The translations under genes were made by a program, and so were the position numbers. DNA of 64,000 nucleotides from an uncultured Chromatiales bacterium (GTDB taxonomy: Bacteria > Pseudomonadota > Gammaproteobacteria > DATFLL01), in the NCBI GenBank assembly GCA_964561765.1, contig CAZLQI010000006.1, forward strand, positions 3,297-67,296. Reading direction: 5' to 3'. This document shows, piece after piece, positions 4,304 through 35,511 of this stretch. The notes below the pieces were generated by a model, which was not told the origin of the DNA, made no database searches, and worked only from the letters and a program-made list of their open reading frames with translations. Numbering within the stretch: position 1 is the first letter of the stretch; every line of letters begins with the position of its first letter.

Positions 4304-5026
4304 GTGCTGCGGTGTTCGTTCGGGCGGAGGCCTATACTGTTGAATCGCATCCACATTCTCTCACGGTTTTGTCGTGCCGCTTTGCCAGGGCCGCGTGTAC
4401 TCCTGGTGCTGTGGGTCGTGTTGGCCCCGGCGCTGCGACCGGTGTCGGCCCAGACCGTCGAGTCACCCGATGTGCTCATGCAGCACACCGCACAGACAAT
4501 GTTCAAGGCCATCGAGCATGACCAAGCAAACCTGAGTCGCCATCCCCAGCAGGTCTATGCCTTGGTCGAGCGGGTGCTGGTGCCGCATGTGGACTTCAAT
4601 CGCGCCGCGCACTGGGTGCTGGGGCATTATTGGCGCCAGGCATCACGGACACAGCGGGCGCGGTTTGTCGCGCAATTCCATACGCTGTTGGTACGATTTT
4701 ACTCCAATGCCCTGATGGCTCTTCTCGGTACGAACGGGTTCTCTGCGGACATGCTGCGTTTTCTGCCCTATACCCACGTGAGCGGCGCGCGCGAGGCCGT
4801 GGTGCGCTCCCTCATACGCCAGCCCAATGGCACCGAGGTCCAGGTCGACTACATCCTGCATCACGGCCGTGCGGGATGGCAGGTCTATGATGTCACGGTG
4901 GAAGGCATCAGTCTGATCATCACCTACCGCTCAAGCTTTGCCGCAGAAATCCGCAAAAACGGACTGAATGGCCTGATCTTGACCCTGGCCAGGCACAACC
5001 GTCAATTACTAGCCGTAGACAGGTAG
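4304..5026 (+). CDS. Second MlaC/Ttg2D-family paralog (true start is probably internal)
   Basis: LVPHVDFNRAAHWVLGHYWRQASRTQRARFVAQFHTLLVRFY parallels the upstream gene; hydrophobic signal-like segment VLLVLWVVLAPALRPVSA. Confidence 0.65.
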   Translation: MLRCSFGRRPILLNRIHILSRFCRAALPGPRVLLVLWVVLAPALRPVSAQTVESPDVLMQHTAQTMFKAIEHDQANLSRHPQQVYALVERVLVPHVDFNRAAHWVLGHYWRQASRTQRARFVAQFHTLLVRFYSNALMALLGTNGFSADMLRFLPYTHVSGAREAVVRSLIRQPNGTEVQVDYILHHGRAGWQVYDVTVEGISLIITYRSSFAAEIRKNGLNGLILTLARHNRQLLAVDR

Positions 5027-5156
5027 TGCCGATGGCCCCGCCCTGAACCGGACGCCGTCTTGACCTCGCTTCCAAGTCGATGTCGTCAGTCGGATATCAG
5101 GATTATTGATAACTTGTTGAAATCTATCTATTTAGAAGTCTATTTATGATTTAGTG

Positions 5157-5182
5157 GGCCGCGATTTGCGGTCTTTATTGTT
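5157..5182 (+). terminator. Candidate rho-independent terminator: 6-bp GC stem (one G-U pair), 5-nt loop, TTTATTGTT tail
   Basis: ggccgc gattt gcggtc tttattgtt, read directly; downstream of the MlaC pair. Confidence 0.35.
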
Positions 5183-5285
5183 CAAACGCGCCCGCCCTGT
5201 TACGCTTCACGATGCGCAATGGCGTTTCCCCCACGCTGATGCCCGTACAACAAAAAACTAGAAAATCCTTCAATGGCGTCCCGGC

Positions 5286-7964
5286 GTGGCCAGGGACACG
5301 GGAGCGGAATGTCGCATGCAACGCATCCTCATTATCGAGGCATCCACTACGCTGTCGCGTGTGCTGGAAGCCCAGATCACACCATACTATCCGATCGAGA
5401 TAATACGCTCGCACCGCGCCGGGCTGGCACGGCTGGCCGAGTCCACCGAGGCCTTTAGCGCTGTCGTGATGGGATGGCCGGAGGCCTCCGATCCGGTGAT
5501 CGAGGAGTGCCAGGCGTACTTGTCCGAGCGGTCCGCCTGGCAGCATCTGCCCCTCCTGGTGCTGAGCCATTCGGTGGATACACCGAGGCTGGACTGGGTT
5601 GCAGGTCGCCCGCATGGTGCGTTGCTGCACTGGGATGATTTTCGTGAGGTCGCGGCATTGCTGGACGGATTGCTGGATGCGTCCCTGGCGCTGGCGTCCA
5701 CGGTCGCCGGTCGCGATGAGCGTATTCGCGTGTTGTTTGTCGATGATTCGCGTACCGCGCGCGTGAAAATTCGTCGTCTTCTCGAAGCCGAAGGCTATGA
5801 TGTCGAGACAGCAGTCGATGCCGATGAGGCCCTGATGCGGGCCAGGCATCGGCACACGCGGGCGTTGCCTGCAGAGGAGGGCGAGGCAGGCGTGGCCGGT
5901 GATGAGACGGTGGAGCGCGCGGGCTTTGATATCGCCATCATCGATTACTTTATGCCGGGTGTCACTGGCGACAAGTTGTGTCGGCGCCTGCGCGCCGATC
6001 CGCGTACCAGCGGCATTACCACCGCCGTTTTTACCAGTACCTACCGGGACCAGATCATCACTGATTCATTGGCCGCCGGGGCGGTGGAGTGCATGTTCAA
6101 GAACGAGTCCGATGCCCTGTTTCTGGCCCGTGTTGCCGCGATGAGTCGCACGGTGCGCAGTACGCGGCGTATCGAGCATGAACGCAGTCGTTTGCAGGGC
6201 ATTCTGTCCTCGGTGGGTGATGGGGTATATGGGGTAGATCGCAACGGCATGCTCACCTTCATGAACCCGGCGGCATTGCGTATTCTGGGTTATGCACCGA
6301 AACAGGGGACGGATTTTATCGGGCGCTCGTCGAGTGTGGTGTTTCACCCCGATGCGCCGACTGTGGAGGGAAGCAGGTGTCCGTCCTGTGTCCCGCGACA
6401 GAGCGTGAAGGCGGCGCTGGCGCAGGAGTCAGTGTTCACACGCCATGATGGCACGGCGGTGCCAGTGGAACTGACTCTCTATCCGTTGTCCATCGGGGGC
6501 CGGGTTGAGGGGGCGGTCATCGCTTTTCGCGACATCCGCGTGCGCAAGCAGCTCGAAGATGAGTTGAGGTGGCAGGCCAGCCATGATCCGCTGACCCGTG
6601 TGTTCAACCGTAAGTATCTCGAAGATGCGCTCGAGCAGGAAGTCCGGCGGTTGCGTCGTGGGACTGAGGCCGGTGCATTATTGTATCTCGACCTGGACCG
6701 GTTCAAATATATCAATGACACTGCAGGCCATGCTGCGGGCGATCGCCTGTTGATCGAGATTGCCCGGCATCTGACGGGGCGGCTGCGCGAGACCGATCTG
6801 CTGGCGCGTATCGGTGGTGACGAATTTGCGCTGATTCTGCGCGGGGTGGGGCGTGAGGATGTATTCCAGGTCGCCGACGAGTTCCGGGCCTTGCTGACCG
6901 GGTATACCTTTTCGTATGAAGGGCGCAACTACAAGATCAATGGCAGCATTGGTGTCGCGCTGCTCGATCGACATATCGACAGTACGGCCCAGGCCCTGGC
7001 CAATGCCGATATCGCCTGTCACATTGCCAAGGGTCAGGGCCGCAACCAGACACACGTATTCCAGGCGGAGTGTGACGAGCGGGTTGCCATGGACCTGGAC
7101 CTCGGCTGGTCTACCCGGTTGCATACCGCCCTCGAAGAGGGTCTGTTTGAACTGTATTTTCAGCCCATCATACCGCTGGTGGCCATTGCGCGCGAGGACA
7201 TGGTGCGGCCAGGGTTGGTCGATGGGCGCTGGCAGCAATGGGCGCACGCCCATCCGGCGCAGCCGCCGGTCTATGAGGTGTTGATGCGACTGCCTGATGC
7301 ACGCGGTGAACTGATCTCGCCCAATGCCTTTATCCCCACCGCCGAGCGGTTCAATCTCATGCCGGCGATCGACCGCTGGGTGGTTGCCCGGGCCCTGAAG
7401 AAACTCACCGCATTGCATCGCCAGGGTCGGCGTGTGGTGTTCAGTATCAATCTTTCCAGCCAGAGCCTGGTCGACGCCGAACTGGCGGGGGTGTTGCGTG
7501 ATGCGCTGGCCGAGCCGGGGCTGGATGCCTCCTCGGTGGTATTGGAGATCACCGAGGAGGCATCCAGCCGTTGCCTGGACGCCGCGCAGCATTTTATCGA
7601 GGAATTCAGCGCGCTGGGTTGCCGGTTCGCTATGGATAACTTTGGCAGCGGCTCTTGTTCCTTCACGCATCTCAAGCACCTGGCAGTGGATTTCATCAAG
7701 ATCGACGCTCTGCTTACCCAAAGTATCGTCCATGATGCCACGGACCTTGCCATCATCCAGTCCATCACCGATATTGCCCACTCGCTGAACAAGCTCGTCG
7801 TCGCTGAGGCCGTAGAGTCGCCCGATATCTTGCAGGCACTCGTCGGCAGCGGAGTGGACTTCGTGCAGGGACGCCACCTGTGCCCACCTATTGCCGCCCT
7901 GCCGGGTCTTTGCGAGGGGGGGGAGATCGCTGAGGCGAAGGTTCACTATCGCCAGCGCCAATGA
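5286..7964 (+). CDS. Multidomain c-di-GMP signalling protein: pseudo-receiver + canonical receiver (REC) + PAS + GGDEF + EAL. Likely true start is MQRILII at 5316
   Basis: REC2 has DIAIIDYFMPGVTGDK (phospho-acceptor Asp). REC1 has AVVMGWPEAS with Gly at the acceptor position. PAS around SRLQGILSSVGDGVYGVDRNGMLTFMNPAA. GGDEF intact (RIGGDEFALIL). EAL domain has EVL in place of EAL, DNFGSG in place of DDFGTG, plus EITEE and KIDALL. Confidence 0.85.
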   Translation: MARDTGAECRMQRILIIEASTTLSRVLEAQITPYYPIEIIRSHRAGLARLAESTEAFSAVVMGWPEASDPVIEECQAYLSERSAWQHLPLLVLSHSVDTPRLDWVAGRPHGALLHWDDFREVAALLDGLLDASLALASTVAGRDERIRVLFVDDSRTARVKIRRLLEAEGYDVETAVDADEALMRARHRHTRALPAEEGEAGVAGDETVERAGFDIAIIDYFMPGVTGDKLCRRLRADPRTSGITTAVFTSTYRDQIITDSLAAGAVECMFKNESDALFLARVAAMSRTVRSTRRIEHERSRLQGILSSVGDGVYGVDRNGMLTFMNPAALRILGYAPKQGTDFIGRSSSVVFHPDAPTVEGSRCPSCVPRQSVKAALAQESVFTRHDGTAVPVELTLYPLSIGGRVEGAVIAFRDIRVRKQLEDELRWQASHDPLTRVFNRKYLEDALEQEVRRLRRGTEAGALLYLDLDRFKYINDTAGHAAGDRLLIEIARHLTGRLRETDLLARIGGDEFALILRGVGREDVFQVADEFRALLTGYTFSYEGRNYKINGSIGVALLDRHIDSTAQALANADIACHIAKGQGRNQTHVFQAECDERVAMDLDLGWSTRLHTALEEGLFELYFQPIIPLVAIAREDMVRPGLVDGRWQQWAHAHPAQPPVYEVLMRLPDARGELISPNAFIPTAERFNLMPAIDRWVVARALKKLTALHRQGRRVVFSINLSSQSLVDAELAGVLRDALAEPGLDASSVVLEITEEASSRCLDAAQHFIEEFSALGCRFAMDNFGSGSCSFTHLKHLAVDFIKIDALLTQSIVHDATDLAIIQSITDIAHSLNKLVVAEAVESPDILQALVGSGVDFVQGRHLCPPIAALPGLCEGGEIAEAKVHYRQRQ

Positions 7965-15971: not shown

Positions 15972-17315
15972 CTACTTGTGCCTGACCAGATACAGACCCT
16001 TGAGTAGATCGAGTGCCGCGTAGACCGGATAATCGGTCTTGGCGAGTTCAAGCTGCTCTTGCCGGTCTTTTTTCACGGCTTTGGCGTTGGTTCGGCCAGC
16101 GTTGTTGTTGACCAGATGGCCAGTGAGGTCCTTTTCCTTCAGCGGCGTAATAGTGCCCCGATGGGTGCTGGCCAGTTTGAAGTTGTTGAGTACGATACCC
16201 GGTTCGATGCCTTTGGCCTGAATGGAGCGGCCGCTGGGCGTGTAGTAGCGCGCGGTCGTCAGCTTGACCGCCGTACCGTCACCGAGCGGCAGGATGGTTT
16301 GTACCGATCCCTTGCCGAAGGTGCGGCGTCCCATGATGATTGCACGATGATCATCTTGTAGGGCGCCAGCGACGATCTCGGAGGCGGAGGCGGAACCGCC
16401 ATTGACCAGCACCACCATGGGGGCGCCATTGAGCACATCCCCGGGGGTCGCGCGACGCACGAGATCGGCGTCGGGAGTGCGGCCCCTCACGCTGACGATG
16501 GTGCCCTTCTGGACAAAGGCATTGGCAACATCAACGGCGGCATTGAGCAGACCACCGGGGTTGTTGCGCAGGTCGAGGATCAGCCCCTTGAGCGGTCGTT
16601 TGTTTTCCTTTCTGAGTTTGGCTATCGCCTTGAGCATGTCCTCACCGGTGTGTTGCTGGAACTGCGCCAGGCGCAGATAGCCGAAGCCGGGTTCGAGCAG
16701 GTGGCTTCTGACGCTGTGCACCTGGATGCGGGCACGGGTCAAGGTGACGGTGAACGGCCTGTCGACGCCCTCGCGTACGATGGTCAGCGTGATCTTGCTG
16801 CCCGCCTTGCCGCGCATCCGCTTCACTGCGTCGTTGAGGGTCATGCCCTTCACCGGGGTGTCACCGAGGCGGATGATCAGATCACCCGGTTTGATCCCGG
16901 CGCGTTGGGCCGGCGTGTCATCAATAGGGGAGATGACCTTGATGAAACCGTTTTCCATGCCGACCTCGATACCCAGGCCACCGAATTCACCGGAGGTGCT
17001 GATGCGCATCTCCTTGAAGGTTTCCTTGTTGAGGTAGGCGGAGTGCGGATCGAGGCTGTCGACCATGCCACGGATGGCGTTTTCGAGTAGTTTCTTGTCG
17101 GAGACGGGTTCGACGTAGTCGCGCTTGATGAGGGAATAGACCTCACTGAAGTCACGTAACTCGCCAATCGGCAAAGTCGCTGCGCTAGAGTTCACAGCGG
17201 CAGCCGCGGCGTTTGCTGTGCTTCGATCCGCCAGCACGCTTTGGCCGATGACCAGAGAGACACCGAGGGTGATGCCCAGCAGCAGGATGAGAAAATAACG
17301 CGAGTACAGTTTCAT
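15972..17315 (-). CDS. ctpA: Carboxyl-terminal processing protease CtpA (S41 family, PDZ domain)
   Basis: 447 aa; signal peptide; PDZ (GIKPGDLIIRLGDTPVKGMTL); LILDLRNNPGGLL and GGSASASEIVAGALQD catalytic motifs. Confidence 0.85.
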   Translation of the reverse strand: MKLYSRYFLILLLGITLGVSLVIGQSVLADRSTANAAAAAVNSSAATLPIGELRDFSEVYSLIKRDYVEPVSDKKLLENAIRGMVDSLDPHSAYLNKETFKEMRISTSGEFGGLGIEVGMENGFIKVISPIDDTPAQRAGIKPGDLIIRLGDTPVKGMTLNDAVKRMRGKAGSKITLTIVREGVDRPFTVTLTRARIQVHSVRSHLLEPGFGYLRLAQFQQHTGEDMLKAIAKLRKENKRPLKGLILDLRNNPGGLLNAAVDVANAFVQKGTIVSVRGRTPDADLVRRATPGDVLNGAPMVVLVNGGSASASEIVAGALQDDHRAIIMGRRTFGKGSVQTILPLGDGTAVKLTTARYYTPSGRSIQAKGIEPGIVLNNFKLASTHRGTITPLKEKDLTGHLVNNNAGRTNAKAVKKDRQEQLELAKTDYPVYAALDLLKGLYLVRHK

Positions 17316-18816: not shown

Positions 18817-20388
18817 TCAGGTGCAGGCGTCTTGCCGTGTATCGTCGTTGAGCACGATGAGTGAGCGGCCGTTCATTTCTGTCGGTTGCGCAAGCCCCAT
18901 GAGGTAGAGCAGAGTGGGAGCAACGTCGGACAGAGCCCCATTTTCGGTCATGCGGGCGGGACGTCCGACATAGATGCAGGGCACAGGATTGCTGGTGTGC
19001 GCGGTGTGCGCCTGGCCGGTATCGCGGTTGCTCATCTGTTCGGCATTGCCATGGTCGGCGGTAATCAATGCCTCACCACCGACCTCCCGTACGGCTCCAA
19101 TGACACGTTCCAGCATACAGTCCATGACCTCGATGGCCTTGAGTGTCGCGGCAAAGTTGCCCGTATGCCCGACCATGTCGGGGTTGGCATAATTGCAAAT
19201 GATGGTGTCGTATCTGTCACTCTTGATGGCTTCGACCAGTTTGTCGGTCAGCGCGGGGGCACTCATCTCGGGCTGTTGGTCGTAGGTGGCGACGTTCGGT
19301 GAGGGGATCAGTATTCGATCTTCGCCGTCGAAGGGGGCCTCGCGCCCGCCATTGAAGAAGAACGTGACGTGAGCGTATTTCTCGGTCTCGGCAATACGTA
19401 ATTGGCGCAGACCCAGGCTGGAGATATAGGCGCCCAGTACGTTGACTATGCGATCGGGTGGATAGGCGACCGGGATATCGAAGTCGGCGCTGTATTCGGT
19501 GAGGCTGACAAAGGCGCCGAGCCGGGGTACGGCCGCACGCTCGAAGTTGTCAAAGTCTGACTCGATGAAGGCACGGGTGATCTGGCGGGCGCGGTCCGAG
19601 CGGTAATTCATGAAAATGATGACATCACCGTCTTCCACCTGCACCGGCTGTTCACCCGCGGGCACGATGGCGGTGGCCTTGACGAACTCATCGGTTTCGC
19701 CACGCGCATAGGCCATGCCGAGCCCGGTTAGCGCATCCGTTGCCTGAAAGTCGGCAGCGCCCCGGGTAATGAGGTCATAGGCGGACTGGATGCGCGGCCA
19801 GCGGTGGTCGCGGTCCATGGCGTAGTAACGCCCGATGAGGGAGGCGAAGCGGCCTTGGCCGAGCGCCGCAAACTTGGCTTGCATGGCCTTGATAGACGCG
19901 ATCGCACTCTTGGGTGCGGTGTCGCGCCCGTCGAGGAAGGCATGCAGGTACACCTGCGGGGCGTGCAGGTGGGTGGTCAGTTCAACCATGGCGTGGATGT
20001 GTTCTTCGTGACTGTGGACCCCACCGGGGGAGAGCAGGCCGAGGATATGCACCGCCTTGTTAGCATGCCTGGCCTGTTCCACCGCGTTGATCAGAGTCTG
20101 GTTGGAGAAGAATGAGCCGGTTCTGATGGCACGACTGACGCGCGTGTATTCCTGGTAGACCACACGTCCGGCCCCCAAGTTGAGATGCCCCACCTCTGAA
20201 TTGCCCATTTGCCCGGTGGGCAGCCCGACTTCGGCGCCAGAGCCGCGGATCAGCGTGTGCGGGCAGGCCTGCCATAATTGCGCCCAGAAGGGCGTATTGG
20301 CGGCGATAATGGCGTTGCCTTCCCGGGATTCACTGTAACCCCAGCCGTCGAGGATGATCAGGGTCATGGGACGGAATTTTAAGGACAT
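18817..20388 (-). CDS. gpmI: 2,3-bisphosphoglycerate-independent phosphoglycerate mutase
   Basis: 523 aa; [13 protein letters not shown]...; typical GpmI length and motifs. Confidence 0.9.
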
Positions 20389-20677
20389 GGGTACTCTGCA
20401 GGTATGAATTAACAGATTTTCAGTGGTGTTTGGACTGGATCTAGATCCATTCTAATGTCGACTTTAACGTAAAGCCAATCCGATTGCACATGCTGTGGTC
20501 TTTTCTGCCATTGCACAAAAATACCATAAATAAAGTGTTTATTGCCTGTTAAAACGTTAGATTATTGTATAATGTTTCGATTATAAACTAAGTCGCTTGC
20601 TGCCAAGTATTATAAAGGATGATTCTCCATCATCACATAGCGGCTTGAATTGTGTGTACCAGAACGGGGCCATATTT
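20389..20677. promoter_or_regulatory. AT-rich intergenic regulatory region upstream of the arsR-family gene, with several palindromes
   Basis: ggatctagatcc (20437-20448). aataaa gtg tttatt (20529-20543). Repeated attgcaca. tataat at 20578-20583. Confidence 0.4.
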
Positions 20678-21013
20678 ATGGAAGCAATACTGGAATTTCA
20701 CACCGATACCCTTATTACCCGCGATGAGGATATCGACCGGGCATCGCGTTCATTGAAGGCGATGTCGCATCCGCTACGATTGAAAATACTCTGTACCCTG
20801 GGCGATCGCGAGATCAGTGTTCAGGATATTGTGGGACATGTTGGCACCTCGCAGAGCAATATTTCCCAGCATCTTGCCATCCTGCGCGACAAGGGTATCC
20901 TGGCCTCGCGCAAGGATGCCAACCGCGTTTATTACCGGGTGGGTGATGCGCGTACTTTGCGTCTCATCAGCATGATGCGAGAGGTATTTTGCACCATGGC
21001 ACCGGATAACTGA
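20678..21013 (+). CDS. ArsR/SmtB-family transcriptional regulator (YgaV/BigR-like)
   Basis: MSHPLRLKILCTLGDREISVQDIVGHVGTSQSNISQHLAILRDKGILASRKDANRVYYRV; gene GC is clearly lower than its neighbours. Confidence 0.8.
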   Translation: MEAILEFHTDTLITRDEDIDRASRSLKAMSHPLRLKILCTLGDREISVQDIVGHVGTSQSNISQHLAILRDKGILASRKDANRVYYRVGDARTLRLISMMREVFCTMAPDN

Positions 21014-21246
21014 GTACGCCATTAACGACATGGCGGCGGGTGTTGACCCGCAAACCATGAACAGGGCATGAGAACCGGTGTCCGGGGCACGGATCATCGG
21101 TGGTCGTGTTTACCGGTATTCCTATTTCGAGCTGTTTCCGTTATCTTAGGCGACCGGATTCCGGCGCGCCACGCGGCCTTGCGTGGCGTGTGGCGTCATC
21201 ACTGTGCAACGCATACGATTTGTTGTCTACCCGAGGTGTGTCCGTC

Positions 21247-21471
21247 ATGAATTGCGAACGTATGGTTCGCATCATCGCGGGCTTCTTTATCCCCCTAGCG
21301 CTGGGCGTCAAAGGCAGTGCGCTGTTCCAGAACGTCAACTGACTGTGGTTTACCGGTTTTGTCGGATTGAATCTGTTCCCGAGCGGTTTTACCCGTTTCT
21401 GCCCATGGGAGACGACGCGCCACAAGATGGGCCTTAAACGCGCTACCGAGTCTTGTATACGAGTTGAATGA
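21247..21471 (+). pseudogene. DUF2892 (YgaP-like membrane domain) gene interrupted by an in-frame TGA at 21340-21342
   Basis: [59 protein letters not shown]... Both halves are in the same frame and together match the DUF2892 pattern (N.DRIxRIxxG...GLxPLxTGxxxFCP). The stop sits where a Trp is common. Confidence 0.5.
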
Positions 21472-21484
21472 GCCAGGATACAGT

Positions 21485-21913
21485 ATGAGTCAATATATTA
21501 CTTTCGTGACCCAGAATTGGGAGTTGTTCCTGGCCCTGGTGGTGATCGTGGGCCTGTTGGCTGGTCACTCTTTCAGCAGCAGTCTGCGGGGTTACCGGAC
21601 GGTGACGCCACAAGAGGCCACACGGCTGATGAATCATGAAAACGCAGTGGTGATCGATGTCCGCGAGGCCAATGAATACCATAGTGGGCACATCATTAAT
21701 GCGCAGCATATCCCCCAGGGTCATGTGCGTGATCGCCTCGGCGAGCTGGAGAGGCACAAAGACAAACCCATCATCGTGGGGTGTCGGTCAGGACAGCGCT
21801 CGGGGCGGGTCTGTGGCCAATTGAAAAAGGCCGGTTTCGAGAAAGTGTATAACCTGGGCGGGGGCGTTCTCGCCTGGCAGAATGCAGGTTTGCCGTTGAG
21901 TAAAAAAAAGTAA
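21485..21913 (+). CDS. yibN: Membrane-anchored single-domain rhodanese (YibN-like)
   Basis: N-terminal TM helix (QNWELFLALVVIVGLLAGHSF); rhodanese fold with active-site loop IIVGCRSGQRSG; followed by grxC-secB-gpsA as in E. coli. Confidence 0.8.
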   Translation: MSQYITFVTQNWELFLALVVIVGLLAGHSFSSSLRGYRTVTPQEATRLMNHENAVVIDVREANEYHSGHIINAQHIPQGHVRDRLGELERHKDKPIIVGCRSGQRSGRVCGQLKKAGFEKVYNLGGGVLAWQNAGLPLSKKK

Positions 21914-21929
21914 GAACGGGGGAAATACC

Positions 21930-22196
21930 ATGAGTGAAGTCGTGATATATGCCACCGGTATGTGTCCATACTGCATACGTGCGAAGATGCTGCTGGATGA
22001 TAAAGGCGTAGCCTACACCGAGATACGCCTTGATCTTGAACCTGGGCGGCGCGCCGAGATGGAGCAGCGTAGCGGGCATACGAGCGTGCCACAGATATTT
22101 GTTGGTGCGCGCCATGTGGGTGGCTGTGATGATCTGTATGCCCTGGAGCGCCTGGACGAACTGAACGGGCTGCTGGGGGAAACCGCCGCGCTGTAA
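21930..22196 (+). CDS. grxC: Glutaredoxin 3
   Basis: 88 aa, VVIYATGMCPYCIRAKMLLDDKGV...; CPYC active site. Confidence 0.85.
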   Translation: MSEVVIYATGMCPYCIRAKMLLDDKGVAYTEIRLDLEPGRRAEMEQRSGHTSVPQIFVGARHVGGCDDLYALERLDELNGLLGETAAL

Positions 22197-22332
22197 GCGG
22201 GGCGCCGCGTTTTGTGTTGCCCCCAGGCATGATGTCACTGCCAAGCGTGGATCAATCTGGTAAAATGCCACAGTCCGCCACTGCGTGGGCGGAAAACCGA
22301 ATTTTTCCATGTATCTTTCCCAGGAACCGACG

Positions 22333-22797
22333 ATGGCTGACAATGCGCGAGACCAAGATGCTGAACAACAGTTCGGCATTCAGAAGATCTATGTCAAGGA
22401 TATTTCCTTTGAATCCCCCAATGCACCGAGCTGCTTCACCGAGCAGTGGGAACCCGAGGTCAAGCTGGAGCTGAATACGGCTGGAAACGGTATCGGCGAC
22501 GACCTCTACGAGGTCGTGCTGTCGTTGACCGTAACGGCAGACAATGCCGACAAACCGGCCTTTCTGGCCGAGGTGCAGCAGGCCGGTATCTTCGTGCTCA
22601 ACGGTTTCAGCGAAGAGGACATCAGCGGCATGTTGGGCAGCTTTTGCCCGAACATCCTCTTCCCCTATGCCCGCGAGACGGTCTCCGATCTGGTGATTCG
22701 GGGTGGTTTCCCACAGTTGTTGTTGGCGCCGGTCAACTTCGACGCGCTCTATGCCCAGCATCTTCAGGAACAACAGGGTAGCCAGGTGCTCAATTGA
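22333..22797 (+). CDS. secB: Protein-export chaperone SecB
   Basis: MADNARDQDAEQQFGIQKIYVKDISFESPNAP...; AGGA SD 7 nt upstream of ATG 22333. Confidence 0.85.
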   Translation: MADNARDQDAEQQFGIQKIYVKDISFESPNAPSCFTEQWEPEVKLELNTAGNGIGDDLYEVVLSLTVTADNADKPAFLAEVQQAGIFVLNGFSEEDISGMLGSFCPNILFPYARETVSDLVIRGGFPQLLLAPVNFDALYAQHLQEQQGSQVLN

Positions 22798-22838: not shown

Positions 22839-23852
22839 ATGTCTGCGACACCTACAGGTCCCATCGCCGTCCTCGGTGCCGGTTCCTGGGGCACGGCTCT
22901 GGCCATCCTTCTGGCGCGCAATGGTCACGATGTTGTGCTCTGGCATCACCGTGCCGAGGCGCTGGCGGCCATGGCGGCGGCGCGGTGCAATACACGCTAT
23001 CTGCCCGCAGTCGTTTTTCCCGATGCGGTTCGATTGGAAGCGGATCTGGGTGCGGTGGCCGAGTGCGCTCGCGACCTGCTCATCGTCGTGCCCAGCGGCG
23101 CATTTCGGAGCATGATGGAGGCGCTGGCACCGCATCTGCGATCGGGGCAGCGCTTGTGCTGGGGCACCAAGGGGCTGGAACATGGCTCCCGCAAGCTACT
23201 TCACACGGTTGCGGCCGAGATCGTTGGCACGGCATACCCTCTGGCAGTCATTTCGGGACCCACCTTTGCGGGTGAGGTGGCACGCGGCCTGCCGACGGCG
23301 ATCACCGTGGCCTCCGAGGATGCAGCCTTTGCACAGGACATCGCGCTTTGGCTGCATGGTGAGTGCCTGCGCGTCTATACCAGTGCAGATATCGTCGGTG
23401 TACAACTTGGCGGTGCAACCAAGAATGTGCTGGCGCTGGCCGCGGGTATTGCCGATGGCCTGGGTTTTGGCGCCAATACCCGTGCGGCATTGATCACCCG
23501 TGGCCTGGTTGAACTCACCCGCCTGGGAGTGGCCTGCGGGGGACGCAGGGAGACCTTCATGGGGCTGGCAGGATTGGGCGATCTGGTGCTGACCTGCACC
23601 GATGATCAATCGCGCAATCGTCGCGCCGGGCTGGCCCTGGGCCACGGCGAAGCGCTCGAAGACGTGTTGTCCGGCATTGGCCAGGTGGTCGAGGGCGTGC
23701 GTGCGGCGCGAGAGGTCCGTGCCCTGGCCAGGGAGCATGGCGTTGAGATGCCGATCGCCGAACAGGTCTACCGGGTCCTCTACGAGGGCTATGCACCACG
23801 CACTGCGGTCGATGCCCTGCTGGAGCGATCCCCGAAACCGGAAGGACCCTGA
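22839..23852 (+). CDS. gpsA: NAD(P)H-dependent glycerol-3-phosphate dehydrogenase
   Basis: IAVLGAGSWGTALAILLARNGHDVVLW...; 337 aa. Confidence 0.9.
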   Translation: MSATPTGPIAVLGAGSWGTALAILLARNGHDVVLWHHRAEALAAMAAARCNTRYLPAVVFPDAVRLEADLGAVAECARDLLIVVPSGAFRSMMEALAPHLRSGQRLCWGTKGLEHGSRKLLHTVAAEIVGTAYPLAVISGPTFAGEVARGLPTAITVASEDAAFAQDIALWLHGECLRVYTSADIVGVQLGGATKNVLALAAGIADGLGFGANTRAALITRGLVELTRLGVACGGRRETFMGLAGLGDLVLTCTDDQSRNRRAGLALGHGEALEDVLSGIGQVVEGVRAAREVRALAREHGVEMPIAEQVYRVLYEGYAPRTAVDALLERSPKPEGP

Positions 23853-33420: not shown

Positions 33421-33536
33421 TTTTGTCTGTCTGCGCTCGGTGGGTCTGTCGAAGCAGGCAGGGCAATGGTCCTTCATCGTGCGCATCGATCACACCTAAT
33501 TACATCAACCATCGCTCATTGCTGAGGAGTTGCATT

Positions 33537-34484
33537 ATGCTGAATCTTGGGTTATCGGGTTTTCAAGGCTTTGTCATCCTGTTGCTGGTACTGGCCGTCG
33601 TACTGCTGATCATGGGCGTCAAATCGGTGCCGCAGGGCATGGAGTATACGGTGGAACGCTTTGGCCGCTACATGAGTACGCTCTCACCGGGGCTGAACAT
33701 CATCGTGCCGGTCATCGATCGCATCGGTGTGAGGCTCAACATGATGGAGACCGTGCTGGACGTGCCTTCGCAGGATGTCATTACCAAGGACAACGCCATG
33801 GTCACGGTCGATGGCGTCATCTTCTTCCAGGTGTTGGATGCCGCCAAGGCGGCCTACGAGGTCAACCAGCTGGAGCGGGCCATCCTCAATCTCGTTATAA
33901 CCAATATCCGCACGGTCATGGGCTCAATGGACCTCGACGAACTGCTCTCACAGCGCGACAAGATCAATATCAAGCTGCTGCACGTGGTCGATGATGCGAC
34001 CACGCCCTGGGGGGTGAAGGTCACGCGTATCGAGATCAAGGACATCACCCCGCCGCGCGACCTGATCGAGTCCATGGGACGTCAGATGAAGGCCGAGCGT
34101 GACAAGCGCGCCTCGATTCTGGTCGCCGAGGGCGCACGGCAGTCAGAAATTCTGCAGGCTGAAGGCAGAAAGCAGGCCGTTATCCTGGATGCCGAGGGTC
34201 GCAGAGAGGCGGCCTTTCGTGAGGCTGAGGCACGTGAGCGCCAGGCCGAGGCCGAGGCACGTGCCACGCAGATGGTCTCACAGGCCATCGAGAAGGGTGA
34301 TGTCAATGCCATCAATTACTTTGTCGCGCTGAAGTATATTGATGCCCTGCAGAATATCGCCATGGCGCCGAACGAAAAACTCGTGTTCATGCCATTGGAT
34401 GCCTCCGGTGTCATCGGTGCCCTGGGAGGGATTGGTGAGTTGGCCAAGCAGGCCATGGCCGGTAATAAAGGGGGTGCGGGGTAA
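33537..34484 (+). CDS. qmcA: SPFH/band-7 (stomatin-like, QmcA-type) membrane protein
   Basis: N-terminal TM, SPFH core (VPQGMEYTVERFGRY...ITKDNAMVTVDGVIFFQV), charged coiled C-terminus; GAGGAG SD 6 nt before ATG 33537. Confidence 0.85.
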   Translation: MLNLGLSGFQGFVILLLVLAVVLLIMGVKSVPQGMEYTVERFGRYMSTLSPGLNIIVPVIDRIGVRLNMMETVLDVPSQDVITKDNAMVTVDGVIFFQVLDAAKAAYEVNQLERAILNLVITNIRTVMGSMDLDELLSQRDKINIKLLHVVDDATTPWGVKVTRIEIKDITPPRDLIESMGRQMKAERDKRASILVAEGARQSEILQAEGRKQAVILDAEGRREAAFREAEARERQAEAEARATQMVSQAIEKGDVNAINYFVALKYIDALQNIAMAPNEKLVFMPLDASGVIGALGGIGELAKQAMAGNKGGAG

Positions 34485-34921
34485 TGAGCCACGTCACCTT
34501 CTGGCACTGGTGGATCGCCGCCCTGGTCCTGTTCGTGCTGGAGGCGCTCGCCCCAGGTGCCATCTTCCTATGGATGGGTGTGGCCGCCGGGGTGAGCGGT
34601 CTGGCACTGTACCTGATCCCGACCATGGGGTGGGACTATCAGGTATTGCTGTTCGCCCTCTTGTCGGTGGCCAGCATTATTGTGTGGCGAGCCTATCTGC
34701 ACCGCCACCCAACGGCCACTGATCGACCCACCCTGAATCGCCGGGGCGAGCAGTATGTCGGGCGGGTGTTCACGCTGGAGGAGCCCATTGTCAATGGCGA
34801 GGGTCAGATCCGCGTCGATGATTCCACCTGGAAGGTCCGGGGACAGGACTGCCCCCGTGGCAGTCGGGTGCGGGTGGTGGGTATCGATGGCGCGGTGCTG
34901 AGCATCAAGCCCGAGCCCTGA
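34484..34921 (+). CDS. NfeD-family membrane protein (YbbJ-like partner of SPFH)
   Basis: Two TM helices then OB-fold C-terminal region; start overlaps the qmcA stop. Confidence 0.8.
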   Translation: MSHVTFWHWWIAALVLFVLEALAPGAIFLWMGVAAGVSGLALYLIPTMGWDYQVLLFALLSVASIIVWRAYLHRHPTATDRPTLNRRGEQYVGRVFTLEEPIVNGEGQIRVDDSTWKVRGQDCPRGSRVRVVGIDGAVLSIKPEP

Positions 34922-35085
34922 ACTGGCAGAGCCCCGGCGACATGGTGCGCAAGGGGACGGTACGCGCACAGGTGTTATACTTTCAAGGTGGGTACGGTGC
35001 CCGGTGGGGCGGATTCACGAACTTGAATTTTACCGACAGTCGCGGGTCTGGCGACGGGTGTTCGTCTCTAACGGCGGGAACGGCC

Positions 35086-35511
35086 ATGGCTGATACACCG
35101 ATCAGGACTATCACACCTCACGAGGCGTGGGATATCATGGAGCACAATCCGCGAGCCCTGCTCATTGATGTGCGCTCGACCATGGAGTTTCTCTTCGTTG
35201 GTCACCCCAAGGGTGCCATTCATGTGCCCTGGATCGATGCCCCGGAGTGGACGATCAACCCCGAGTTCGTCGCCCAGGTACGCCAGATTATCCTGGGCGG
35301 GGTCGCCTACCACGGCGAGGGGGGTGTCCCTATCATTCTGATCTGCCGCAGTGGTCGCCGTTCCCTGGAGGCCGGAGCCCTGCTCGCAGACGAGGATTTT
35401 ACGGATATCTACAATGTCGAACACGGTTTCGAGGGGACGCTCGACGACACCCATCATCGCAGTTCCCTGGAGGGTTGGCGCAAGGAGGGTCTGCCCTGGG
35501 AGCAGTGTTAG
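35086..35511 (+). CDS. Single-domain rhodanese (sulfurtransferase), Rhd of the Rhd-TusA-DsrE2 type
   Basis: Start MADTPIRTITPHEAW; active-site loop ILICRSGRRS; C-terminal extension. Confidence 0.8.
   Translation: MADTPIRTITPHEAWDIMEHNPRALLIDVRSTMEFLFVGHPKGAIHVPWIDAPEWTINPEFVAQVRQIILGGVAYHGEGGVPIILICRSGRRSLEAGALLADEDFTDIYNVEHGFEGTLDDTHHRSSLEGWRKEGLPWEQC

Follow-up and report, generated by a model that had tools for sequence, protein, structure and literature searches.

Comparisons with related loci indicate that the gene at positions 20678-21013 (plus strand) of a 64,000-nucleotide stretch of DNA from an uncultured Chromatiales bacterium (contig CAZLQI010000006.1; the whole stretch is referred to here as the window) encodes an ArsR/SmtB-family regulator of the clade that comprises BigR, YgaV, HlyU, and SqrR, and that this regulator is ancient, has been inherited vertically, and is under very strong constraint. 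The gene starts with an ATG at 20678, spans 111 codons (111 amino acids), and forms part of a segment (20389-21471) that separates gpmI, the first gene of the leftward block gpmI-envC-ctpA-yibQ, from a rightward cluster that encodes a membrane-anchored rhodanese of the YibN type, glutaredoxin (GrxC), SecB, and GpsA. The remainder of the segment comprises a 289-bp divergent leader rich in adenine and thymine (AT) between gpmI and the regulator gene (20389-20677), a 233-bp spacer (21014-21246), and a frame for a DUF2892 membrane domain (21247-21471, plus strand) that is broken by a stop codon. A reading made from the sequence alone (hereafter the sequence-only reading) had described this gene order and these coordinates correctly, and had interpreted the segment as a horizontally acquired persulfide-sensing switch over the yibN-grxC operon. 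Our results support a persulfide switch as a reasonable proposal on grounds of homology but refute its horizontal acquisition. We regard it as fairly probable that the segment is not an insertion but a native element that heads and regulates the rhodanese-grxC-secB-gpsA cluster and is equipped with a persulfide-released repressor.

A conserved regulator upstream of a YibN-type rhodanese

Related loci (numbered with the prefix L) were compiled in a scan that used the rhodanese as the query and that retained one genome per species, after which ten proteins from the window were mapped onto the loci. An ortholog of the regulator is encoded just upstream of the rhodanese and downstream of a divergent gpmI or envC in 36 of the 37 informative loci. 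Loci with the regulator belong to metagenome-assembled genomes of the Ectothiorhodospiraceae, Thioalkalispiraceae, Chromatiaceae, Sedimenticola, and Methylomarinum, to gill symbionts of Solemya, and, among the Betaproteobacteria, to Thauera, Azoarcus, and other Rhodocyclaceae. These lineages are mostly sulfur oxidizers or are exposed to sulfide. The regulator occupies the same junction in at least 58 of the 72 metagenome contigs that carry a 20-mer from the promoter block described below, as well as in further contigs, and it is missing from the junction in a Photobacterium locus (L034) as well as in more distant loci from the Legionellaceae and Thiotrichales. In the betaproteobacterial loci L026, L027, L029, L031, L033, L035, L037, and L039, the regulator gene adjoins envC and not gpmI, and the encoded proteins feature a third cysteine in the alpha3 region, within EVCVQDIV (EACVQEIV in L035).

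Protein identity to the window is 69-91% for the regulator when compared to 57-79% for GpmI, 42-67% for the rhodanese, and 49-69% for GpsA in the same genomes. The regulator is thus the most conserved protein of its neighborhood, exceeding GpmI, CtpA, SecB, and GpsA in comparisons with L002-L040. Nucleotide identity at four-fold degenerate sites of the regulator gene is 0.12-0.55, which is equal to or below that of gpmI, ctpA, and gpsA and reflects saturation of synonymous sites. In addition, the guanine-plus-cytosine content at third codon positions (GC3) of the regulator gene ranges from 0.38 to 0.92 among relatives, in step with that of each host. Because GC3 tracks the host and four-fold sites are saturated, the high protein identity of the regulator does not derive from recent transfer. 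Judged from these comparisons, the constraint on this protein is unusually strong for a transcription factor. A search of protein collections with the regulator yielded approximately 8000 matches at E <= 1e-10, many of them metagenomic; the best 120 of these are 85-97% identical to the query and carry generic names only.

Profile and structure-database searches place the regulator among the cysteine-pair members of the ArsR family. It was recovered by the Pfam profile HTH_5 (PF01022; E = 2.6e-12, 46.8 bits, cut-off 22) and by NCBIfam NF033788 (84 bits, cut-off 55), and a sequence search of the PDB returned BigR (3pqj) as the top match (E = 1.2e-17), with YgaV (3cuo), HlyU (3jth and 4k2e), and SqrR (6o8k; E ~2e-14) matching at approximately 1e-14. 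The sequence-only reading had proposed a persulfide-sensing regulator, which would need a pair of sensing cysteines, and both residues are in place. In alignments with BigR, YgaV, and HlyU, C39 (codon 20792-20794), in helix alpha2, lies within KILCTLG, which aligns with LVCTL, LILCML, and QILCML, and C105 (codon 20990-20992), at the C-terminal end of helix alpha5, lies within EVFC, which aligns with TIFC, NVYC, and SLYC. Both cysteines are invariant in all 36 regulator orthologs. The recognition helix, SQSNISQHL, is likewise invariant among relatives and most closely resembles SQSALSQHL of HlyU. Residues of a metal site were not observed, as the protein lacks a CXC motif in alpha3 (EISVQDIV) and a histidine in alpha5 (TLRLISMMREVFC), and the same is true of its gammaproteobacterial orthologs.

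The next intact gene downstream of the regulator in the window encodes the rhodanese (21485-21913, plus strand; Pfam Rhodanese; 142 amino acids), which has an N-terminal hydrophobic membrane anchor and no DUF2892 domain. Its catalytic loop reads C100-RSGQRS, and a further cysteine occupies position 110. The catalytic cysteine, in a loop of the CRSGQRS type, is present in the window and in all 44 relatives (44/44), most of which also have a second cysteine 10 residues on, while Escherichia coli YibN (L082, 4585-5016) has an aspartate at the catalytic position (VVDGSGMQ). A correlation between the presence of the regulator and the catalytic cysteine was considered and rejected, since loci without the regulator keep the cysteine and only E. 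coli YibN lacks it. The placement of the regulator ahead of a membrane-anchored rhodanese makes the analogy with ygaV-ygaP that was drawn in the sequence-only reading reasonable (PMC9774250). In our literature search, no publication connected an ArsR regulator with the yibN operon; a recent study ties YibN to the YidC insertase (PMC11997395).

Linkage between the two genes is tight in many relatives. In four relatives, 3-4 nt separate the stop codon of the regulator gene from the point where the rhodanese match (tblastn) begins, and in eleven others the distance is 22-43 nt, placing the rhodanese 3-43 nt away in fifteen relatives; these short gaps argue for a single transcript in those organisms. 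The rhodanese is followed in the window by grxC (21930-22196, plus strand; Pfam Glutaredoxin) and then, after a gap of 136 nt without a gene (22197-22332), by secB (22333-22797, plus strand; Pfam SecB) and gpsA (22839-23852, plus strand; Pfam NAD_Gly3P_dh_N and NAD_Gly3P_dh_C). In many relatives, a gene for a zinc-ribbon thioredoxin (Trx2-like) either lies between grxC and secB or replaces grxC (e.g., L083-L087, at approximately 4960-5640). This suggests that the conserved cargo comprises a rhodanese, a glutaredoxin, and a thioredoxin, which could plausibly constitute a persulfide-processing set that is followed by secB and gpsA.

The leader and a putative persulfide switch

A candidate promoter/operator block, AGATTATTGTATAATGTTT, was identified in the leader at 20559-20577 (plus strand), with a perfect TATAAT at 20568-20573. 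An alignment of leaders revealed that the window and L002-L010 share an identical block and that L011 and L030 have a near-identical one; in the window it is unique, with 0 chance matches expected. The 20-mer that represents the block in relatives was detected as an exact match in 72 metagenome contigs, 63 of which carry the orthologous leader: 58 encode the regulator 85-224 nt downstream, and in 5 more, which are truncated at the contig end, gpmI flanks the leader on the opposite side. The other 9 matches arose by chance within genes of genomes with 28-38% GC, and the 20-mer was therefore dismissed as a marker of other regulated genes. That leader nucleotides are conserved at a divergence that has saturated synonymous sites is indicative of a promoter that is overlapped by a binding site, and we infer that the regulator may be the protein bound there. 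An expectation-maximization motif search of 28 leaders recovered the block in the -10 region only, with no clear dyad common to the gammaproteobacterial and betaproteobacterial orthologs, and an Rfam scan of 20300-21600 at E <= 1 gave no match.

The leader also contains several palindromes, as had been recognized previously. The most conspicuous is a near-perfect 26-bp palindrome, TTGGACTGGATCT/AGATCCATTCTAA, at 20430-20455, which overlaps a -10-like hexamer directed toward gpmI (TAGAAT, 20454-20449); others are located at 20453-20466 and 20562-20591. Relatives of one sub-clade have a 15-bp palindrome, TTAGAC-N3-GTCTAA, once per locus and nearer to gpmI. Its two halves form the outer arms of the 26-bp palindrome in the window, which has 11 extra central bases and has kept its symmetry. 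The window palindrome thus appears to be that of the relatives with an 11-bp central insertion. Since TTAGAC-N3-GTCTAA is limited to one sub-clade and the recognition helix is invariant everywhere, it is not clearly the site of the regulator. We also rejected it as a marker of a regulon, given that its matches in the window are degenerate and occur at chance frequency only.

By analogy with its characterized relatives, the regulator is most likely a persulfide-released repressor that acts at the conserved block at 20559-20577. In members of the clade, a persulfide bridge between the two cysteines leads to release from DNA or to lost activation (PMC9774250; PMC10509353). A reduced dimer of the regulator would bind the TATAAT block (20559-20577, maybe extending to 20591) and repress its own promoter, and it would control the downstream rhodanese and glutaredoxin genes through read-through transcription or through a second, candidate promoter in the spacer. 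Persulfides or polysulfides would link C39 to C105 through a di- to tetrasulfide, the bridged protein would leave the DNA, and the sulfurtransferase and thiol-reductase genes would be induced. The induced enzymes would then consume the signal and reset the switch.

The candidate spacer promoter, TTCCTA-N17-TATCTT (21119-21147, plus strand), resembles a sigma-70 promoter and is the sole spacer block conserved among the window, L002, and L112, although a scan for consensus promoters did not pick it; it may be a separate internal promoter. A GC-rich hairpin (CGCCACGC-GGCCTT-GCGTGGCG, 21167-21188) is also present in the spacer; it is not followed by a run of T, and L002 and L112 do not share it. 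No significant folding of the 233-nt spacer was detected relative to shuffled sequences (z = -1.1).

Several observations weigh against a persulfide-released repressor that governs the cluster. The regulator scores 77 bits with the BigR equivalog NF040642, under the cut-off of 155, suggesting that it represents a separate orthologous group inside the clade. The SqrR/YgaV box ATTC-N8-GAAT, with at most one mismatch allowed, is absent from the leader of the window and from those of 22 of 23 relatives, and the lone match, with one mismatch in the L013 leader, does not fall in a conserved position. Conservation of the promoter block could be explained by a strong promoter alone, and the binding site of the regulator at this locus is a candidate that was proposed from its sequence. 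That the signal is persulfide, and not another oxidant, is taken from homology only. Finally, the gap between regulator and rhodanese in the window is 471 nt and includes both a broken gene and a candidate internal promoter, which makes co-transcription in this organism uncertain.

The resemblance of the recognition helix to that of HlyU, an activator and anti-silencer and not a repressor (PMC10509353), also bears on the direction of control. A protein of this kind would displace a nucleoid-associated silencer from the AT-rich leader, and persulfide would turn expression off. The leader is long and AT-rich in all relatives, and hence is of the DNA type that is bound by H-NS-like proteins, and HlyU itself is sensitive to persulfide (PMC10509353). 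However, the most conserved block overlaps the -10 box, which is the classical place for a repressor, as is the case for YgaV (PMC9774250). The block also lacks a match to the hlyA operator TAATTCAGACTAAATTA, of which only the heptamer AGACTAA was detected, in the other palindrome of the relatives. We therefore consider an HlyU-like mode of action unlikely.

The cysteine pair might instead sense another signal, such as peroxide, disulfide stress, hypoxia, or a metal, in which case the link to sulfur would be circumstantial. BigR was first described as forming a disulfide, and a cargo of glutaredoxin, thioredoxin, and rhodanese would also fit a general response to thiol-oxidative stress. In contrast, persulfides, but not H2O2, elicit a response from the characterized members with this alpha2/alpha5 pair, SqrR, BigR, YgaV, and HlyU (PMC10509353; PMC9774250), the regulator is devoid of metal-site residues, and sulfur oxidation or exposure to sulfide prevails among the lineages that carry the gene. 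These observations render a different signal improbable.

The DUF2892 frame and the origin of the segment

The sequence-only reading had placed a gene for a DUF2892 membrane domain directly before the rhodanese. A 74-codon frame for this two-helix, YgaP-like domain is indeed present there, but it is not intact: an in-frame TGA at codon 32 (21340-21342) leaves an open reading frame (ORF) of 31 codons without read-through, and the match to PF11127 (42.4 bits, cut-off 25.3) is obtained only when the TGA is read as tryptophan. All 24 intact DUF2892 orthologs, which derive from L002, L011, and L030 (between regulator and rhodanese), L007 (ahead of the rhodanese), and 20 of the 72 metagenome contigs, have TGG (tryptophan) at this position (24/24). 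The frame in the window further exhibits a unique 2-residue deletion in helix 1, replacement of an invariant glutamine by proline, and changes of a near-invariant serine and a near-invariant proline, while most intact copies break no invariant column. The same TGA occurs in a second assembly of the species (contig VAOX01035587, L001), whose sequence shows 12 substitutions and one gap relative to the window across 14.7 kb, indicating that the stop is not an error of a single assembly. Based on these sequence data, DUF2892 is decaying in the lineage of the window through a tryptophan-to-stop mutation.

DUF2892 is a sporadic accessory gene that is found in approximately a third of the clade. In a neighbor-joining tree of GpmI, CtpA, GpsA, and SecB, the DUF2892-bearing lineages (L011, L030, and L002 together with the window) are positioned around a sub-branch without the gene (L003-L010), and all outgroups are without it. 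A profile search at E <= 1 detected no remnants in relatives that lack the gene. The common ancestor of the sub-clade probably had DUF2892, with a single loss in one branch thereafter, and an old gain at the base of the sub-clade, as opposed to a recent one, is possible. These findings argue against the view that the locus recreates a split YgaP, since DUF2892 is sporadic in relatives and inactivated by a nonsense mutation here, and the rhodanese, being of the YibN type with its anchor at the N-terminus, is not a piece of YgaP.

A functional DUF2892 protein would have to arise from the UGA being read through by tRNA-Trp or recoded as selenocysteine. The frame is open to 21471 without frameshifts and has retained a Shine-Dalgarno sequence (GAGGTG) and an FTRFCP motif, and the UGA is followed by C (TGAC), which is the leakiest stop context in E. 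coli. Selenocysteine was rejected because the intact orthologs have tryptophan, and not cysteine, at the UGA and because no significant hairpin follows it (folding of 21330-21420 was no better than that of shuffled sequences, z = +0.69). Other genes in the window end in TGA, indicating use of the standard genetic code, and the deletion in helix 1 together with the changes at conserved positions speak against a working product. Low-level read-through by tRNA-Trp is possible, but a functional frame is very unlikely.

The base composition of the segment had been taken as a sign of foreign origin. The leader is the lowest-GC 289-bp stretch of the 64-kb window (0.377, compared with a window mean of 0.595), and in this respect the low GC reported for a region of approximately 1.1 kb was confirmed. 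Beyond the leader, however, the GC content is 0.524 for the regulator gene (GC3 0.59), 0.584 for the spacer, and 0.529 for the DUF2892 frame. The coding parts, at 0.52-0.53, thus resemble the rhodanese gene (0.548) and grxC (0.573); secB is at 0.560. Equivalent leaders in all 23 relatives examined (23/23) have a GC content that is 0.10-0.19 under that of their locus. This suggests that AT-richness is a conserved trait of the divergent promoter region and not a mark of foreign DNA. Acquisition of a cassette of approximately 1.1 kb (leader, ArsR gene, and DUF2892 frame) as a foreign persulfide switch over the yibN-grxC operon, to which the lack of a gene between yibN and gpmM in E. coli, the extreme AT content of the leader within the window, and a regulator GC3 at the low end for the window might point, is scarcely credible given the presence of the regulator at this junction in two proteobacterial classes with native composition, its saturated synonymous sites like those of flanking genes, the AT-rich leaders of relatives, and the absence of mobility genes and flanking direct repeats near the locus.

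Surrounding genes, implications, and comparison with known systems

The leftward block begins with gpmI (18817-20388, minus strand), which encodes a 2,3-bisphosphoglycerate-independent phosphoglycerate mutase (Pfam Metalloenzyme and iPGM_N) and is syntenic in relatives. Pfam profiles identified the products of the block as iPGM, an M23 peptidase (EnvC), an S41 peptidase (CtpA), and YibQ. The longest ORF for yibQ begins with TTG at 16051 and shares 80 nt with the end of ctpA (15972-16051); the actual start is probably located further downstream. The flanks had been likened to those of E. coli; the order at the junction in strain K-12, where gpsA-secB-grxC-yibN lies opposite gpmM-envC-yibQ with 244 bp between them and no regulator gene, agrees with this, with the exception that ctpA is outside the E. 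coli block. Elsewhere in the window, a gene for another rhodanese-domain protein (34942-35511, 189 amino acids) directly follows a gene of the SPFH/Band-7 family (33423-34484) and a short ORF (34484-34921). The remaining genes of the window, including ubiE/ubiB, metH, gshA, pepN, purD, and a gene for phosphoribulokinase, represent the ordinary core genome of a gammaproteobacterium that is probably autotrophic.

Collectively, these results remove a false lead, in that there was no recent gene transfer at the locus, and define a large, uncharacterized orthologous group of BigR/SqrR-type regulators. The fixed genomic partner of this group is a YibN-type rhodanese and glutaredoxin, often with thioredoxin-2, followed by secB and gpsA. 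We tentatively suggest that, in Gamma- and Betaproteobacteria that oxidize sulfur, the regulator could serve the YibN-Grx-(Trx2)-SecB-GpsA cluster as a dedicated sulfane-sulfur switch. Such a role would connect YibN with the handling of persulfides at the inner membrane and would couple sulfur stress to protein export and to the synthesis of phospholipids. The occurrence of a regulator of the persulfide-sensing type before the cysteine-bearing form of YibN offers a testable hypothesis for the ancestral function of the operon, and the broken DUF2892 frame illustrates accessory-gene loss in progress.

When compared to characterized systems, the regulator represents a new, highly conserved addition to a known clade, and its partner operon is fixed. 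Its best match, BigR of Xylella fastidiosa and Agrobacterium (3pqj), agrees with it in the winged-helix ArsR fold and in the alpha2/alpha5 cysteine pair and is likewise encoded beside sulfurtransferase genes (PMC5823870). The cargo of BigR, however, consists of blh and a sulfite exporter as opposed to the YibN-type rhodanese, grxC, (trx2), secB, and gpsA, and its recognition helix differs. SqrR of Rhodobacter capsulatus, a repressor that senses persulfides and has its cysteine pair in alpha2 and alpha5, regulates rhodaneses among other targets (PMC9995734), yet it differs in its operator (ATTC-N8-GAAT) and genomic context and is comparably low in similarity (E ~2e-14). HlyU of Vibrio belongs to the same clade, shares the cysteine pair, has the most similar recognition helix, and is responsive to persulfide (PMC10509353), but it activates toxin genes by anti-silencing and is not linked to yibN-grxC-secB.

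The two E. coli systems each share part of the arrangement. The yibN-grxC-secB-gpsA genes have the same order, with gpmM-envC-yibQ divergent from them (PMC11997395), but they are accompanied by no regulator, and YibN has an aspartate at its catalytic position. In YgaV-YgaP, as at the locus described here, a cysteine-pair ArsR protein is encoded ahead of a membrane-anchored rhodanese and DUF2892 is present; YgaV is a repressor that occupies its own promoter until sulfide releases it (PMC9774250). The DUF2892 helices of YgaP are fused to the C-terminus of the rhodanese, whereas here they are encoded in a separate upstream frame that occurs in only some relatives and is broken in the window, and the ATTC-N8-GAAT box is absent from the leader.

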